From: Simkaniaceae bacterium
GTDB lineage: Bacteria > Chlamydiota > Chlamydiia > Chlamydiales > Simkaniaceae
DNA: 64,000 nt
Assembly (NCBI GenBank): GCA_050248615.1
Contig: JBFWSA010000004.1
Span: 1 to 64,000 of the forward strand
Direction: 5' to 3'
Below, piece after piece: positions 7,056 to 42,240 of the stretch. The position numbers and the translations under genes were made by a program. Numbering within the stretch: the stretch's first letter is position 1; each line of letters opens with the position of its first letter. The notes below the pieces were generated by a model. The model saw only the letters and a list, made by a program, of their open reading frames with translations. It was not told the DNA's origin and made no database searches.

Positions 7056-10000
7056 ATGATAAAATACGTGATGAATAGAAAGCCCTCTCTCCTCCTGTTC
7101 ACTCTCTTGCACTTATGTGTTTCCACCATTTCATCTCCTGTTTTTGCCGACACCCCTAATCAAAAAATCAAATGGGCAGAAAAAACCCAACCTGAACCCC
7201 CCATCATTCCTCCAGACACCTCTCCCGGTTATACGATCAACTTCGATAATGTGTCGATCATCGAATACATCAAGTTTATCAGCAAAATCAGCGGAATGAA
7301 TTTTATCTATGACGAGACAGATCTTACTTTTAACGTGACTATTGTTTCTGAAGAACCGACAAAACTTGTCAATGTGATGTCAGCACTGATCCAAGTCTTG
7401 AGAATCAATGGCTTTGATTTGATTGAACAAGGGAACAACTTAGTCATCAGTAAAACAGGTGCGATCAAGCAACTTGCCACTGTTGTCTCTCAAGAAGCTC
7501 CCATCGAGGGAAGTGTGATTCCCCCTATTATGACCCGCGTATTTAAAGTAAAAAATGCCAACCCGATGATTTTGGCTGGGCTCGTCCGCCCTTTACTTTC
7601 AGATAATGCGGTTGTAGAGGTTTCTGAAGAAACGCGCCACCTCATCATCACAGATATCACGCAAAACATCGAACAGATCCAGCGCCTATTCTTAAGCCTA
7701 GATATCCCGATCCCTTCACTCGAAATTGACGCCTATCGCGTCCTCAATAATTCTCCAGACACTCTTGTCTCCTTAGTCACTCAAATTCTCACGCCCATTT
7801 CTGAAGGGAACCCTCTGATTTTTGTAGCACAAGACTCCACTAACTCGATTTTTATTGTTTCCACACCCTTCCTCACTGAAAAAGCTATTGAAATTCTTAG
7901 AGATCTCGATACCCCCCCGTCTCTAACGCAGCGTTTCAGCGGACCCATTACAGGGAAAAATGTTCTCATCTATCACATCATGAATAAGCCTGCCGATATT
8001 CTTCAAAGTGCAATTAAGCAAATCGAAAGCAACCTAGCCCAAATGGGCCCCGCATCTGCAGATATCACGCAAACACTGAACACCATGAAATTCATCCGCG
8101 AGAGCCATTCCCTCCTGTTCACAGGAACAGAACAATCCCTCGCTGAAGTGCGCTCCATTTTAGAAGATCTCGATACCCCTTACACTCAGCAAGAACTCGA
8201 ATACGTCCGGGGTGAATACTACTTCTATAAGATCCAGTATGGAGATGAAACGCAAATTGCCCGAGCACTCGAAAAATTCTTGGAAAACTTAAAAAAGTCT
8301 CCTTACATGAATAAAGATTTAATCGATACGATTGAATCGATGAAATGGATCAAGGAAAATGACTCCTTACTGTTTACGGGAGATCAAAAATCTTTAGACC
8401 AGATCAAAAAACTCCTCCCCTCTCTTGACGTTCCCCCAAATGTTGGTAAAAAAGCTTCTAAAATCCCTCTCAGCAGTGATTTTTACTCTTATTCTCCTAG
8501 CAATTTGACACCTCAAGAACTTCTCAAACAGGTACAGGATTACTACAAAAGCTTGAAGGAATCGGATTTATCCGACGCAGCCTTTATGCATGCCCTCGCT
8601 TCAGCTAAAATTGTTCCCTCTTCAAATGCGGTTGTTTTCACCGGCGATCCAGCCTCTCTTGCCCATATCCAAGAGCTCGTGATATCCATGGATAAACCTT
8701 CAGGCATTGTAGAGCAAGAGATGCATGTCTATGTTTATAAAATCCAGTATGTCGATCCCGAATACGTTGAAAGCTCCCTACAAAAGCTCGGGAAATCGGT
8801 TCCTTCTACTGACCCTCTAGCTCAAACGATCGACAATATGAAATACATCCCCGAATCCAATACACTCGTCTTTAGAGGACCTCCTTCTGCGATCAATCAC
8901 ATCAAACTCATTCTTCCCACGCTGGACAATGCCGAAACAGCTAAAGTAGAACAGGAACATAAACCTACATACCTTGTTTACTCCCTCCAAAATGCCCCCG
9001 GAAACGAAGTATTAAAAGAGCTAGAACAGACAGCCAAAACAATCAAACCGAATACAGCAGCAAACAAAGCTCTGATTGAGTCGATTAAAAATGTCAAGTG
9101 GATTGAGTCTACAAACTCCTTGATCCTTACAGGAACTCCCCCAGTGATTCAACACTTGGAACAGATTATCGCCAAGTTTGATATTCCCCGCCCAGAACAA
9201 CAAAAATCCTCCTCATTCTATGTTTACAAACCCCAAGGGATTAGTGCCAAAGAGTTCTTAAAGCGCGTGAATACTGCTGCGAAAGAAATGGAAACTGCTG
9301 GACTTGCTGACAATGCTCTGATCAAAACCATGGAATCGGGAACTCTTGTTTCGAATAATACCGCAGTCATGTTCACTGGAACCCCTGATGGGATCGAAAA
9401 ACTTAAAGCTGTCCTCCAAACCTTTGATACATACAAAGAAGAGCAACCCAAAACAAGTCAATTCTATATCTATAAACCTAGTTCCATATCCGCTGAACAA
9501 CTGCAAAAAGACTTTATAGCTGCTGCCAAACAAATGGAAAAATCGGGACTTCAAGATCCTGAGCTGATCGATGCTATGGAATCTGCAAAGGCAGAAAAAG
9601 GGCGGGTCTTATTTACAGGAACACCGGATGCCATTGATAAAATCAAAGTGATGGCTCGGATCTATGATACAGAAGAAGGTGTAGAAAAAAATTCTGAATA
9701 TTATATTTTTAGACCCGTCAATCAATCCCCTCAATCGGTTGTTGAACAGGCTCAGCACACTGCAGCTGAAATGAAAGACTCAGGTTATGCAGATCCCAAT
9801 GTCATGAAAGCCCTCCAGTCCGCTTCCATTGTCTCCAAAGGGACGGGTGTTCTTTTTACTGGAACTCCCAGTGCAATTGCGCAAATTAAAACCATTGCTC
9901 CGACGTTTGATTCAGAATCTGCCCCCGCGGTCTCTCAGTTTTTTGTTTATCAGCCTCAACACATCTCTGCTGATGCCCTTAGAGAACATGCCCGCAAAGT

Positions 10001-11894
10001 GGCAATTGACATGGAAACGAGTAATTTTGCCAATCAAGCTGTCATTCAAACCTTAAAAACAACGCGTCTGGTTTCGAATGGAAAAGCCGTTCTTTTTACA
10101 GGAACTCCTCAATCCCTTTTAGAAGTGAAAAACCTTCTTCCTACTCTAGATTTTGCAGAAGGCCCCGTAGATGTCGGTCAAACCACGTTTGTTGTTTATA
10201 AAATCCAACATGTTTCTGGTCCTGTCTTAATGGGTTTTCTCCGCAATATGGCAAACGACTTCCGTAGCGCCAACTCTAAGCAAGAGGACCTGATCACAAC
10301 CCTCAATAACATGCGGTATGTCAAAGACACAAATTCCCTGATCTTTACGGGAACTCCAGATGCTGTTCAACAAGCCATTGCTTTAGCAAAACAATTTGAT
10401 ATTCCAGAATTGGGACAAGAAACCCCCGCCCGCGCTCCTTCCGACTTCCTCATCTATAAACCTAAGTATGTCCCTGGAGAAGAACTCATTAAAATCTTGC
10501 ACGATTTTCAACTCAACCTCATCAATTCAGGTGTCAGTAACCAAGGTCTTTTTGATACCATCAACAACTTGAAGTGGATGGAACGGACCTCTTCCATCTT
10601 AGTTTCAGGAGATGAGGATGATATCCAAAAAACGTTAAAGCTTTTAGAACGTTTTGATGTCCCTGGACCCGGAATCCCCCAAGGAGAATCGGGCATTGAA
10701 ACCGTCTCCGACATGAGCTTCTTGATCTATAAATTGCAATACCACTCTGGAGGCGAAATCCAGACAGCTATTAAACAGATCGGCGATGATTTGGAAAAAG
10801 CTAAAAGTGCAGGCAATGAGGACCTCGTTCAAGCGATCAAAACACTCCAATGGATCGACATCACGAACTCCTTGATCGCCACCGGAAAAGCTGACGCTCT
10901 TGGGAAACTCAAAGAGCTCATTAAAAGCATTGACATCCCTTTAAAACAGGTCTTTGTTGAAGTCCTCGTACTAGAAACAAGTATTGGAAATCAGCTCTCT
11001 TTCGGATTACGTTGGGGCTCTCAAGGAGTCTACCGCAATAAGTTCTCCTATGGAACCTATATGTCCCAACCCAATAGCCAACAAAATCCTGATCCCTTGG
11101 GAGGCGTCTTTACATCTAATCTTTCGCAAGTGACAGCAACGAATACCCCTACCGGCCAATTTATTCCCATCTCTGATGGGATGGATTTAGGAATCATTGG
11201 AGATATTATCCTCCATAAAGGGCAAACCTATCTAGCTTTGGGTTCTCTAGTAGATGCCGTCCGTGCAGATGGAGATAGTACCGTCGTGATGAACCAAAAA
11301 ATCATCACTCAAGACAACAAAATGTCCACCTTTTTTACAGGGCAAAATATCCCCTATACGGGCTCTGTCGTGACTAATACGGGTCAAAACACAACAGTCC
11401 AAAATTCCAACCTTGAGTACCGAGATGTGGGTGTTAGCTTAAGCATTACCCCTACAGTCGGAAACAATGACATCATTACTCTTGCCATCGAAGAAGATAT
11501 TTCGGAACAGGTCCAAACAGAACAAGGAAGTGATACAAATACAGGGCAGGTTTTTGGAATTACTACCTCAAAAACCACCACGAAAACGGTGGTCAGTGTT
11601 CCTGATAAAAGCTTCCTTGCGCTCAGTGGATCGATCCAAGATACCACCACCCATACCCGTACGAGCGTTCCTTGCCTCGGAGGGCTCCCCCTCATTGGAG
11701 CTGCCTTCAGCCAAAACGACTCAAACTATTCCACATCTAATATCATCATCTTCATTCGTCCGCAGATCATCAAGTCGTTTGATACCTACGCAGAAATCAC
11801 GGAGAGACAAGAAGACATCTTCCGCTCTCAATCCAATGCAGAAGACTTCGATGCAGGGCTAGAACTCGTAAAAACCCCAGACGATTCCTACTAG
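7056..11894 (+). CDS. sctC: T3SS outer-membrane secretin SctC (CdsC), greatly elongated
   Basis: Signal peptide; N0 domain (YTINFDNVSIIEYIKFISKISGMNF); C-terminal secretin domain (KQVFVEVLVLE...YRDVGVSLSITP...VPCLGGLPLIGAAF...IFIRPQII); 12 internal repeats; T3SS context. Confidence 0.9.
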   Translation: MIKYVMNRKPSLLLFTLLHLCVSTISSPVFADTPNQKIKWAEKTQPEPPIIPPDTSPGYTINFDNVSIIEYIKFISKISGMNFIYDETDLTFNVTIVSEEPTKLVNVMSALIQVLRINGFDLIEQGNNLVISKTGAIKQLATVVSQEAPIEGSVIPPIMTRVFKVKNANPMILAGLVRPLLSDNAVVEVSEETRHLIITDITQNIEQIQRLFLSLDIPIPSLEIDAYRVLNNSPDTLVSLVTQILTPISEGNPLIFVAQDSTNSIFIVSTPFLTEKAIEILRDLDTPPSLTQRFSGPITGKNVLIYHIMNKPADILQSAIKQIESNLAQMGPASADITQTLNTMKFIRESHSLLFTGTEQSLAEVRSILEDLDTPYTQQELEYVRGEYYFYKIQYGDETQIARALEKFLENLKKSPYMNKDLIDTIESMKWIKENDSLLFTGDQKSLDQIKKLLPSLDVPPNVGKKASKIPLSSDFYSYSPSNLTPQELLKQVQDYYKSLKESDLSDAAFMHALASAKIVPSSNAVVFTGDPASLAHIQELVISMDKPSGIVEQEMHVYVYKIQYVDPEYVESSLQKLGKSVPSTDPLAQTIDNMKYIPESNTLVFRGPPSAINHIKLILPTLDNAETAKVEQEHKPTYLVYSLQNAPGNEVLKELEQTAKTIKPNTAANKALIESIKNVKWIESTNSLILTGTPPVIQHLEQIIAKFDIPRPEQQKSSSFYVYKPQGISAKEFLKRVNTAAKEMETAGLADNALIKTMESGTLVSNNTAVMFTGTPDGIEKLKAVLQTFDTYKEEQPKTSQFYIYKPSSISAEQLQKDFIAAAKQMEKSGLQDPELIDAMESAKAEKGRVLFTGTPDAIDKIKVMARIYDTEEGVEKNSEYYIFRPVNQSPQSVVEQAQHTAAEMKDSGYADPNVMKALQSASIVSKGTGVLFTGTPSAIAQIKTIAPTFDSESAPAVSQFFVYQPQHISADALREHARKVAIDMETSNFANQAVIQTLKTTRLVSNGKAVLFTGTPQSLLEVKNLLPTLDFAEGPVDVGQTTFVVYKIQHVSGPVLMGFLRNMANDFRSANSKQEDLITTLNNMRYVKDTNSLIFTGTPDAVQQAIALAKQFDIPELGQETPARAPSDFLIYKPKYVPGEELIKILHDFQLNLINSGVSNQGLFDTINNLKWMERTSSILVSGDEDDIQKTLKLLERFDVPGPGIPQGESGIETVSDMSFLIYKLQYHSGGEIQTAIKQIGDDLEKAKSAGNEDLVQAIKTLQWIDITNSLIATGKADALGKLKELIKSIDIPLKQVFVEVLVLETSIGNQLSFGLRWGSQGVYRNKFSYGTYMSQPNSQQNPDPLGGVFTSNLSQVTATNTPTGQFIPISDGMDLGIIGDIILHKGQTYLALGSLVDAVRADGDSTVVMNQKIITQDNKMSTFFTGQNIPYTGSVVTNTGQNTTVQNSNLEYRDVGVSLSITPTVGNNDIITLAIEEDISEQVQTEQGSDTNTGQVFGITTSKTTTKTVVSVPDKSFLALSGSIQDTTTHTRTSVPCLGGLPLIGAAFSQNDSNYSTSNIIIFIRPQIIKSFDTYAEITERQEDIFRSQSNAEDFDAGLELVKTPDDSY

Positions 11895-11945: not shown

Positions 11946-12896
11946 ATGAGAGCGAAACTGCTAGTTTCTTTACTTTTTTTACTCGCTCTTGCTGGCTGTT
12001 ATAAAGTACCAGACAAAATCGAGCCACAGGTCAATTATTCTGTCCAAGACCGTTACTTAAAGAGCCTCCCTGCTGCTTTCCCCCCTCTTTCTGAGGAGGA
12101 GAAACGGGAAGAGTGGGGAAAGGAATATTTAATCGCACAAAAATTCTCACGCGAGCTCGACCTTTACCGTGCCATTACAACTTTTAAGCGTGCAGAATTT
12201 CTCCTCCCCCCAGGATATCCTCAGCGCTTAGAAGAGATTCAATATCAGATCATTCTCAGTTACTACTTAGGAAAGCGCTACGATGATGTAATTCAAACTT
12301 TTGATCACTCCGTTCTCTATAACGCCAACGCTTCCTTCTCTGCTTACTGTGACCTTCTAGTCATTATGTACGATAGCTATTCGGAAACAGGGCAACAAGA
12401 TAAGGCCCTCTATGTTTTTCGGATCATCCAGCACCATTACCCGGATATAGCCAAAAAGCTGGAGCTTTCAACAGCTTTCTTAGAGGGCGATCTCAATAAG
12501 CTACGTGAAGAGGAACGGATAGAACCTCCCAAACCCTTTCTCACCCATTTTTTAGAGACCTACGACGCAAAAAAAAAATCTGTGAGTAAAGCCCAATGGG
12601 CCAATGCCCTCCTTCCGGGAGCAGGTTATCTCTATGTCGGGCAAAGACAAGCTGCCCTTACCTCTTTCCTTCTCAATACGCTCTTTATTTATGCTGCAGT
12701 CCAATTCTACTCCCATGGATATATCGCTGCAGGCATTATCACAACGAGTTTCGAGATGGGGTGGTATTTTGGAGGGATCTATGGAGCGGGAGAAGCCGCA
12801 AAATACTATAATGAATGGCTCTATGAAAAGCAGGCCTATCCGGTGTTAAACCGTCAAAAGCTTTTCCCTGTTCTTATGCTAAAATATGGATTCTGA
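11946..12896 (+). CDS. TPR-like lipoprotein with C-terminal membrane segment
   Basis: Lipobox LAGC; helical TPR-like blocks (YRAITTFKRA, YYLGKRY); LLPGAGYLYVG motif. Translationally coupled (TGATG) to the YidD-like gene. Confidence 0.6.
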   Translation: MRAKLLVSLLFLLALAGCYKVPDKIEPQVNYSVQDRYLKSLPAAFPPLSEEEKREEWGKEYLIAQKFSRELDLYRAITTFKRAEFLLPPGYPQRLEEIQYQIILSYYLGKRYDDVIQTFDHSVLYNANASFSAYCDLLVIMYDSYSETGQQDKALYVFRIIQHHYPDIAKKLELSTAFLEGDLNKLREEERIEPPKPFLTHFLETYDAKKKSVSKAQWANALLPGAGYLYVGQRQAALTSFLLNTLFIYAAVQFYSHGYIAAGIITTSFEMGWYFGGIYGAGEAAKYYNEWLYEKQAYPVLNRQKLFPVLMLKYGF

Positions 12897-13489
12897 TGAT
12901 AAGGTTAATACTTTTTCTGAAAAATAAGATCCTATTTGACTATGTCGGCTTAGCAACAAATTTTTTGTCTTCACTCGCGTCTTGCCGCAGGGCAATGGTC
13001 GCTCGCTCCAGACACAAAAATTTGTGCTGCCTTCTTGTCAAGTTCATGATTTTATTTTCCAGAACTGGTATAGCCACTCTTTTCCTTTTATTATCTGCCA
13101 CACTTTTTGCGGAAATCGGTTATGTAGAGCCCTGGGGCAAAGATACGGAAATCGTCTCACGCCATTCCCTAGAGCCTTTTCCCGAGCTTAAAAAACCGGG
13201 ACTCCTTTCACGGATGGCTTTCCAGGCCATTCTCTTTCGCCAAAAAGTTCTCTCTCCAGCAGATGGGCCCCGCAGTCATTTCCGTCCTTCCAGCTCTCAG
13301 TATATGTTCCAAGCCATTCGCGAGAATGGATTCCTCAAAGGATACATTATGGGGTGTGACCGTTTGATGCGCGAGAATAAAGAAGAGTGGGTTTACAAAT
13401 CGACAACCTATCTCAATAAAACTTATAAGTGGGATCCCACTTCTTCTCCTGCAAAGAGAAGATCTTCTTCTAAGAAGGCGGGGGGATAG
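12896..13489 (+). CDS. YidD/hemolytic-domain family protein carrying an in-frame palindromic insertion
   Basis: QKVLSP..GPRSHFRPSSSQY..QAI..NGFLKG...CDRLMR matches the YidD pattern. The N-terminus is split by a 162-bp element. Confidence 0.7.
   Translation: MIRLILFLKNKILFDYVGLATNFLSSLASCRRAMVARSRHKNLCCLLVKFMILFSRTGIATLFLLLSATLFAEIGYVEPWGKDTEIVSRHSLEPFPELKKPGLLSRMAFQAILFRQKVLSPADGPRSHFRPSSSQYMFQAIRENGFLKGYIMGCDRLMRENKEEWVYKSTTYLNKTYKWDPTSSPAKRRSSSKKAGG
12908..13072. mobile_element. Palindromic element, family E (RPE/MITE-like), in frame within a CDS
   Basis: Ends ATACTTTTTCTGAAAAATAAGATC / GATTTTATTTTCCAGAACTGGTAT are imperfect inverted repeats; inner arms AGCAACAAATTTTTTGTCT / AGACACAAAAATTTGTGCT; central hairpin TTGCC-GCAG-GGCAA. 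Confidence 0.8.
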
Positions 13490-23935: not shown

Positions 23936-24115
23936 TTAACATAACGCGAATTGCGGATTAGATCTCTATGGAAACGTTCAAATTTTTGAGGAAATTTTTA
24001 GAAAAACCTGCGAAGGAGATAGCCAAAGTGCTAGCTTCAAGCAGTTTTTCTTACAAAGATTCCAAAAAGATGGGTGTTTCTATAGAGATCTAATCCACAA
24101 TTCGCGTTAACATAA
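23936..24115. mobile_element. Palindromic element, family C (TAAC...GTTA ends): 162 bp between 9-bp direct repeats
   Basis: CGCGAATTGCGGATTAGATCTCTATGGAAAC ... GTTTCTATAGAGATCTAATCCACAATTCGCG (23945-24106), flanked on both sides by TTAACATAA. Confidence 0.85.
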
Positions 24116-26144: not shown

Positions 26145-26314
26145 TATGAACCTATCCGCAAAGTCAAATACGCTTTCTTTTTGTTCTTTTTTGACTTTTT
26201 TGATGTTCTTTTTTCGCCCTTGTCTCCTGGACAATATGCTCAAATAAAAACATCAAAAATTGTCTAAAAAATTTCCAAAAATTAAACTTATTCTACTTTG
26301 CGGATAGGTTCATA
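26145..26314. mobile_element. Palindromic element, family A, full length
   Basis: Perfect 20-bp inverted ends TATGAACCTATCCGCAAAGT / ACTTTGCGGATAGGTTCATA; core CCTTGTCTCCTGGACAAT; T-rich left arm, A-rich right arm. Confidence 0.88.
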
Positions 26315-33615: not shown

Positions 33616-33781
33616 ATGAACCTATCCCATTAATCCATTCATGGGGATTTTTGAGATTTTTCTTGAAGATTTTTTTCATTCATTTTGAGGCCTTGTCTCT
33701 TGGACAATGTCCTCAAAATGAATGAAAAAATCGGCAAAAAAGGCAAAAAATACCGGAAATGGATTAATGGGATAGGTTCAT
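33616..33781. mobile_element. Palindromic element, family A, full length
   Basis: 24-bp perfect inverted ends ATGAACCTATCCCATTAATCCATT / AATGGATTAATGGGATAGGTTCAT; core TTTTGAGGCCTTGTCTCTTGGACAATGTCCTCAAAA. Confidence 0.9.
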
Positions 33782-42045: not shown

Positions 42046-42240
42046 AGAGATTGTCTTCGAATTAAAATTATACTCAAACAACTTCAAAAGTTGGTTGGGT
42101 ATATTTATCTTTTTGCCTTTTTTGATTAATTACGCAGCTCGATCTTGACAACTTTATTCAAGTTGTCGACGATCTCCGCAACCTAATTTCTCTAAAAAAG
42201 TCATAAAACTTAAAGAAATTTTAATTCGGAGACAACCTCT
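42046..42240. mobile_element. Palindromic element, family D, with a nested mini family B element (42069-42103)
   Basis: AGAGATTGTCTTCGAATTAAAATT / AATTTTAATTCGGAGACAACCTCT ends; central hairpin GACAACTT-TATTC-AAGTTGTC; insert TA-TACTCAAACAACTTCAAAAGTTGGTTGGGTA-TA. Confidence 0.85.

Follow-up and report, generated by a model that had tools for sequence, protein, structure and literature searches.

Palindromic repeats placed in frame within proteins were described as Rickettsia palindromic elements (RPE) by Ogata et al. (2000, 2002), hairpin-forming repeats treated in the accessible text of PMC10969869, PMC2229807 and PMC3733652. N-terminal RPE-1 fusions are reported there as expressed (PMC3733652), and the RPE target duplication is listed as unknown in the accessible part of PMC2229807. 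The same part describes RUP of Streptococcus pneumoniae, a MITE with IS630-Spn1 ends that is thought to be moved in trans, targets TA and is closed by stops in every one of its six frames. For the YPAL/RU-2 fusion YPO1552 of Yersinia, the available text of Delihas 2007 (PMC2759123) presents a repeat that lies within a predicted signal peptide and supplies residues 1–30. In-frame palindromes, a repeat in a predicted signal peptide and IS630-moved MITEs are thus already known.

The chlamydial element described here has in common with RPE the dispersed hairpins of about 150 bp and a peptide that recurs in frame in unrelated conserved proteins, and differs in its chlamydial hosts and in a candidate parent transposase of identical ends. 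Unlike with RPE, only two of the 211 repeat loci of its genome are coding, and the copy under study is read in the opposite, hydrophobic frame. Both RUP and the present family, F10, are MITEs with terminal repeats matching an IS630-family element, whereas F10 has T-N-A flanks and one open frame. In contrast to YPO1552, the repeat interrupts an existing leader; new here are a natural empty allele, a candidate parent whose target is unusual, and five in-frame insertions that arose independently at a single leader. The RPE1 and RPE3 models did not match the element, and TIGR01045 and TIGR03775 gave no match in five genomes, in a search in which no positive control matched; the element frames tested had no NCBIfam or Pfam match, and Rfam covariance models gave no match to the element at E up to 1. 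The chlamydial element thus works like RPE but belongs to a separate family.

The element and the YidD-like gene

The window, that is, the whole stretch of 64,000 nucleotides that was analysed, is from contig C4 of genome G000 (2.04 Mb, 69 contigs, GC 42.9%, 96% complete). The features of the locus are as follows.

11946–12896 (+): upstream gene, 316 aa, no family match; N-terminus lipoprotein-like by eye
12896–13489 (+): YidD-like gene, long form of 197 aa with predicted signal peptide (open reading frame calls, domain matches)
12896–12907 (+): first four codons of the native gene, start included (MIRL), with coupling to the upstream stop; the same in the empty allele P0035
12906–12908 (+): TAA triplet on the left flank, either a target duplication or TA followed by the first base of the element (copy comparison)
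12909–13070: 162-bp palindromic MITE of family F10, one of six frames open and that frame used by the gene (fold, copies, ends)
12909–12927 (+): left terminal inverted repeat, 19 bp, matching IS630-type transposon ends, with two private changes near the tip
12935–13053: nested-hairpin core, conserved, common to elements of other chlamydial families with other ends
13046–13048 (+): in-frame ATG provided by the element within the 3' arm of its hairpin, where the 147-aa form would start (copies; P0034)
13052–13070 (−): right terminal inverted repeat with private changes (copy comparison)
13071–13073 (+): right flank triplet TAG; Leu-Ala of the empty allele at this place fits a T-A-G target
13073–13111 (+): hydrophobic region and cleavage region of the predicted signal peptide, both intact (ATLFLLLSATLFA); the cut is predicted to follow Ala72 (hydropathy, −1/−3 pattern across orthologues)
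13214–13372 (+): YidD-like domain of the mature protein (PF01809, TIGR00278), residues 107–159 (profile matches)

The reading frame 12896–13489 stays open through the palindrome, and the stretch 12896–13120 (225 nt) folds at −65.6 kcal/mol (z −5.93), none of 200 shuffles being as good. The YidD-like gene starts within the TGA stop of its upstream neighbour (TGATG). Three other full-length copies were found in G000 (contigs C19, C5 and C8; 85–89% identical by BLASTN), together with an internally deleted relative (C10) and another whose ends differ (C21). The preliminary description of this DNA had reported a palindrome without stop in the frame of the gene, ATA codons at 12908 and 13070, 162 bp apart, and an ATG coupled to the upstream stop, and had expected relatives of the 162-bp sequence elsewhere in the genome; each of these points was confirmed. 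The internally deleted copy (C10:51398–51519) provides the last codons and the stop of its own upstream gene.

Elements of family F10 have TAC...GTA ends, a length of 160–162 bp and paired arms. Several traits of a MITE were seen: they are short, have terminal inverted repeats, lack a transposase, are dispersed on five other contigs and have an empty allele. In the 162-bp subfamily one of six frames is open, alike in the C4 copy and in the non-coding C19 copy, and the in-frame ATG at 13046 is likewise a family feature that the C19 copy has as well. The C4 copy has 9 private changes in 162 positions, the most of any copy, several of them in the arms. Those in the terminal repeats have probably fixed it in place, and the weaker hairpin base that results from the arm changes fits age as well as selection.

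From the upstream stop to the mature start there are 53 nt in the orthologue of the same-genus genome G001 and 218 nt in the window, a difference of 165. A natural empty allele, P0035 (142 aa), begins MIRLATLFLLLSATLFA; it is exactly 55 residues shorter than the long form and differs in one other residue. The net insertion is 165 bp, or 55 codons. The ATA-to-ATA boundary of 54 codons proposed earlier is ruled out by P0035, and the excised form had been given as MIRLIATLF, whereas the real empty allele begins MIRLATLF. The precise gap expected in orthologues does exist, the insert being absent from G001 and P0035, though it spans 55 residues rather than 54. As a protein sequence, P0035 may stem from a never-inserted or from a precisely excised allele.

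The 90% protein cluster comprises four members: two alleles of 197 aa, P0035, and the 147-aa NCBI gene call P0034, which begins at the internal ATG. Allele P0024 shows three residue differences, all within the insert (p 0.02), and the three listed strain changes outside the insert are all synonymous. Filled junctions were found in three DNA runs, each from another study, and four of the 24 listed runs, one of them an RNA run represented by contigs, contained no element-skipping form. Contigs of runs X8 and X11 span both junctions, and those of X7 span the left one; these X8 and X11 contigs, with the 197-aa alleles from other sources, rule out an assembly artefact. Within the element, contigs mixed this copy with others, and alleles from that part were left out of the comparison.

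The YidD-like domain exceeds the cut-offs of both PF01809 and TIGR00278. Canonical yidD sits elsewhere in G000 (C11:1862), and a far better-scoring copy is present in all five genomes checked. The gene of the window shares the domain match with YidD and, on its scores, appears to be a second, weaker paralogue with a predicted signal peptide rather than yidD itself; no literature on such a paralogue was found, most subscription papers and all supplements lying outside the search. A hydrophobic leader is present in 161 of the 166 orthologues read. Position −1 is Ala in 21 of the 26 orthologues with a cleavage motif, but −3 is Leu in 23 of them. The long form has a second hydrophobic stretch (residues 43–53), which could alter its targeting. 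In the mature part, one of 35 conserved columns is off consensus, equal to the median of the orthologues.

The 3' end of the YidD-like gene overlaps that of a convergent der/engA-type GTPase gene by 67 bp (13423–13489). The gene run ending in the YidD-like gene is headed by a GspD-type secretin (window 7056–11894), which at 1612 aa is much longer than the 600-position model.

Repeats of the genome, the core and its peptide

A hairpin scan of G000 yielded 154 long palindromes in 16 clusters plus singletons, and the flanking repeats differ by family (TA, two-base, CTAG, 6–7 bp, about 8–10 bp). With the repeat library 332 loci were found, 211 of them of at least 100 bp. Open frames made up only 38 of 810 element frames; 52 open frames span a repeat, three of them with a coding signal. 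Two of these cases are real, the window copy and C11:8230–8393. The latter is a TA-type element of 160 + 2 bp; it adds 54 residues to a protein that has a predicted signal peptide, some 11 codons ahead of the stop and at a place where two homologues end. A third candidate, C49:5211, has no upstream Met and an own Met behind it. In-frame copies within genes thus make up 2 of 211 repeat loci in G000, far from the RPE rate; that coding insertion is common in G000 is ruled out.

At least 13 palindromic families of 157–171 bp with differing ends and flanking repeats, some nested in others, were seen in G000, suggesting several parent IS families that converge on one size. Further repeat loci of the window are 23942–24109, 26145–26314, 33616–33781 and 42046–42240.

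The core of the element (12935–13053) was matched in 7 of 60 relatives and, in a wider genome search, in at least 80 loci, whose hosts are mostly labelled chlamydial, with some Verrucomicrobia. Its layout may resemble that of ERIC and RPE-3. Three kinds of ends cap the same core; locus L081:1430–1600 carries it with the third end type (GGG...CCC) and TTA on both sides.

In these loci, 18 of 90 hairpins are spanned by a long open reading frame. One host, TruA, can be aligned with E. coli TruA to either side of a gap of 68 residues; UbiE, MenD and an RlmI-type methylase each match their own model in two stretches around the insert, and in TyrRS, SufC, an aldo-keto reductase and others the peptide follows codons 1–4. 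A peptide profile built from nine inserts was applied to 7999 candidates, and the profile search places the peptide in 310 predicted proteins, 120 of them listed individually; some may be spurious. Among the 127 proteins read from two pooled searches, the peptide is internal in 56, within 20 residues of the start in 30 and near the end in 8, the remaining 33 being short open reading frames. Two copies of the repeat peptide occur in P0036, P0038, P0041 and P0045.

The RPE-like in-frame process that had been suggested for a chlamydial lineage is upheld by the core across chlamydial genomes, by the peptide in these predicted proteins and by the clean TruA, UbiE and MenD insertions. The internal insertions also rule out, at family level, the idea of signal peptides as the sole safe harbour: in-frame insertion does not depend on a signal peptide, and cleavage is not needed for survival, because relatives insert in frame in many cytoplasmic proteins. 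In these proteins the repeat is read in its reverse, hydrophilic frame (hydropathy −0.8 to −1.4 in eight of nine), whereas the window copy has stops in all reverse frames and uses the forward, hydrophobic frame (hydropathy +0.7, three Cys). The forward-frame peptide was found in only five proteins among 23 candidates, one of them the gene of the window. The literature search found nothing on such elements in chlamydiae, most subscription papers and all supplements being outside it; the REP tables of PMC3733652 might list chlamydial repeats.

Terminal ends, candidate parent and target site

A search of metagenome contigs with the terminal repeat yielded at least 123 stretches, and 77 loci were read for paired ends. 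Most pairs lie 76–174 bp apart with varied interiors, and four are 1088–1139 bp apart. The latter are long elements of 1.09–1.14 kb with identical 19-bp ends (L151, L152, L165 and L205). In both long elements scanned, HTH_33 and DDE_3 lie in two frames joined at an A-run. L151 and L205 are 80–86% identical to the second frame of L165; the transposase of L152 is distant from the other three despite the same ends. Plasmid relatives of these elements are annotated as IS630. Judged by ends and domains, the long elements are a candidate autonomous parent of IS630 type. With the queries used, no matching transposase was found in G000 (69 contigs, 96% complete) or G031. Of an IS5/ISL2-type parent (PF13359), considered as a rival, only a weak remnant is present in G000. 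Locus L141 (G000 C56:6213–8540) is a two-frame transposase remnant with a weak DDE_Tnp_4 match that adjoins a repeat.

The general rule of the IS630 family is a TA target duplication. Flank triplets were equal in 23 of 34 end pairs, the left side being fixed by the search pattern, and the middle flank base covaries (p 7e-4; 27 hand-tallied rows with TTA or TAA on both sides). Core-selected copies with F10-type ends have equal T-N-A triplets in 13 of 17 and TA..TA in 0 of 17, which rules out a plain TA duplication for these ends; for the sister end type TA..TA was found in 34 of 48 core-selected copies. In this tally trimming is off in a few rows and six rows are classed as 'other'. The four long elements show T-N-A flanks instead of TA, the two triplets being equal in L165 only. 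For the window copy (TAA left, TAG right), 165 bp would result from a 3-bp duplication that later changed at one position, and also from a 1-bp duplication if the ends extend by one more base; the latter is favoured because the empty allele has Leu-Ala. The literature search found no fitting paper on IS630 with a 3-bp duplication, and the short flank motifs from loose ends led to one diverged, uninformative site only.

The leader in other chlamydiae and the probable fate of the insertion

A YidD-like orthologue is present in 207 of 260 genomes of the order. The 166 orthologous loci read (58 further matches were not included) keep the upstream neighbour in 152 cases, the distance between its stop and the conserved PW having a median of 64 nt, and 101 of 139 starts overlap the upstream stop. 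At least 160 nt separate stop and PW in twelve loci. Ten of these fold strongly (z −3.3 to −15.8); the long leaders of G006 and G087 showed no fold and were left uncounted. Five of the ten junction palindromes, counted for this gene in the 152 loci, keep the frame and are open when read from a start that lies at the upstream stop or close to it: G000 (f1), G033 (f10), G220 (f34), G231 (f8) and G123 (f25). They represent four element kinds, with mutual sequence likeness only between G033 and G220. Three of the four other leader palindromes are dispersed in their own genomes (61, 85 and 13 matches). The fourth, of G123 (L294:570–745), is near-perfect, 160 bp long and has no second copy in its two-contig genome. 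The palindrome of G231 (L281; L416–L421) belongs to a family whose members are 165 bp long (168 bp net), have GAG...CTC ends and are flanked by 3-bp TWA. In G220, 2 of 27 hairpins are spanned by a long open reading frame, of which the one in the leader alone looks coding. The leader is short in relatives of G220 and G231 from the same genus. All five in-frame cases keep the conserved columns (1–3 departures in 35, median 1).

The other five junction palindromes precede an own start. G254 has in addition an out-of-frame ATG at the upstream stop, and in G031 the other members of the genus have the coupled start. The probability of at least five in-frame cases in ten is 1e-4 at a chance of 1/18, 0.015 at 1/6 and 0.21 at 1/3, so that the excess is not significant if phase alone matters.

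Two loci were noted outside this gene: L134:1436–1600 (−), of the same end type, lies in frame within a predicted signal peptide and its tail gives a new hydrophobic stretch, and L048:391–552 is a possible in-frame insertion in the leader of an NfeD-type protein.

Our preferred reading, to which we give a probability of roughly two in three, is that an IS630-ended MITE was inserted in frame after codon 4 and persists as a read-through leader insert removed with the signal peptide. The insertion with its net length and frame, the empty allele, the match of the ends to transposon ends and the recurrence at this leader are established; movement in trans, use of the first ATG, export and cleavage are inferred. 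An IS630-type transposase would have moved the 162-bp MITE in trans, and its landing added 55 codons before an intact predicted hydrophobic and cleavage region. Since the start overlaps the upstream stop, the leader has no intergenic space; ribosomes coupled to that stop would read through the MITE, and signal peptidase would cut off a 72-residue leader from an exported, unchanged mature protein. The MITE most likely persists because of this read-through and removal. It would be a tolerated passenger whose length plus duplication is a multiple of three and whose single open frame happened to match, and the hydrophobic frame suits a disposable leader better than a folded domain. Protein starts are permissive in general, so cleavage would be a helper and not a requirement.

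It is also possible, if unlikely, that after the same insertion translation restarts at the ATG at 13046, giving a 22-residue leader (MILFSRTGIATLF...) and the same mature protein, with the upstream open frame incidental. This ATG is in frame, has an Arg before the hydrophobic core and was chosen in the NCBI call P0034; G033, G220 and G123, like G000, have an ATG, GTG or TTG 18–28 codons before PW, from which a leader of normal form would be restored; the five remaining junction palindromes precede own starts; and the open frame is a family property found in the non-coding C19 copy too. The only in-frame starts (ATG, GTG or TTG) of G231, however, are 77 and 60 codons before PW, and the lack of a start near the hydrophobic core favours read-through from the coupled ATG. 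Restart would moreover lose the coupling to the upstream stop and does not predict the excess of in-frame cases, and the ATG at 13046 falls in the 3' arm of a hairpin of −55 kcal/mol, where its mean unpaired value is 0.30, compared with 0.38 at the first ATG. Its lack of a Shine–Dalgarno (SD)-like word is uninformative, since a crude scan found none for 721 of 1028 long open reading frames either, and the SD and accessibility scans as a whole did not separate the two starts. The comparative evidence leans to the long form.

Recruitment of the hairpin as a regulatory RNA (attenuation, uncoupling or a processing site), with repeated insertion adaptive, would agree with five in-frame events in five families, with the filled junctions in runs of three studies and with the MITE effects on mRNA described in the accessible text of PMC2229807. 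We regard it as improbable: the element kinds are four and unrelated, shared sequence being confined to G033 and G220, an empty allele exists within the species, the C4 copy is the most changed of its family, and 10 palindromes at 152 junctions do not exceed the expectation from repeat density (211 loci in 2.04 Mb). That the insertion largely silenced the gene, which is now decaying, is more doubtful still; a strong hairpin does begin 13 nt after the start codon, but the mature part keeps 34 of 35 conserved columns while the element has gathered 9 private changes, the listed strain changes are synonymous and the orthologue is retained in most genomes of the order.

Beyond this locus, we tentatively consider, at rather low confidence for the whole, a modular protein-coding palindrome in environmental chlamydiae, with an end-swapping core, frame-tuned lengths and coupled signal peptides as landing sites. 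The core would ride on TA-type, IS630-type T-N-A and GGG-type ends of different transposases, element and duplication together being tuned to a multiple of three. Its peptide of 54–55 residues would occur in hundreds of proteins, in the hydrophilic frame when cytoplasmic and in the hydrophobic frame in a cleavable leader, and coupled signal peptides would repeatedly excise the passenger at the protein level. If true, this would provide the first testable transposase for an RPE-like element.

For annotation the locus is a trap: gene callers report one allele as a protein of 197 aa or of 147 aa, and the peptide, which now occurs in hundreds of chlamydial-type predicted proteins, is marked by no Pfam or NCBIfam model. 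Ever since RPE were described it has been asked how protein-coding palindromes move and what makes genes tolerate them; the locus provides both a filled and an empty allele within a single species, together with a candidate transposase whose ends are identical and five independent natural experiments at the same leader.
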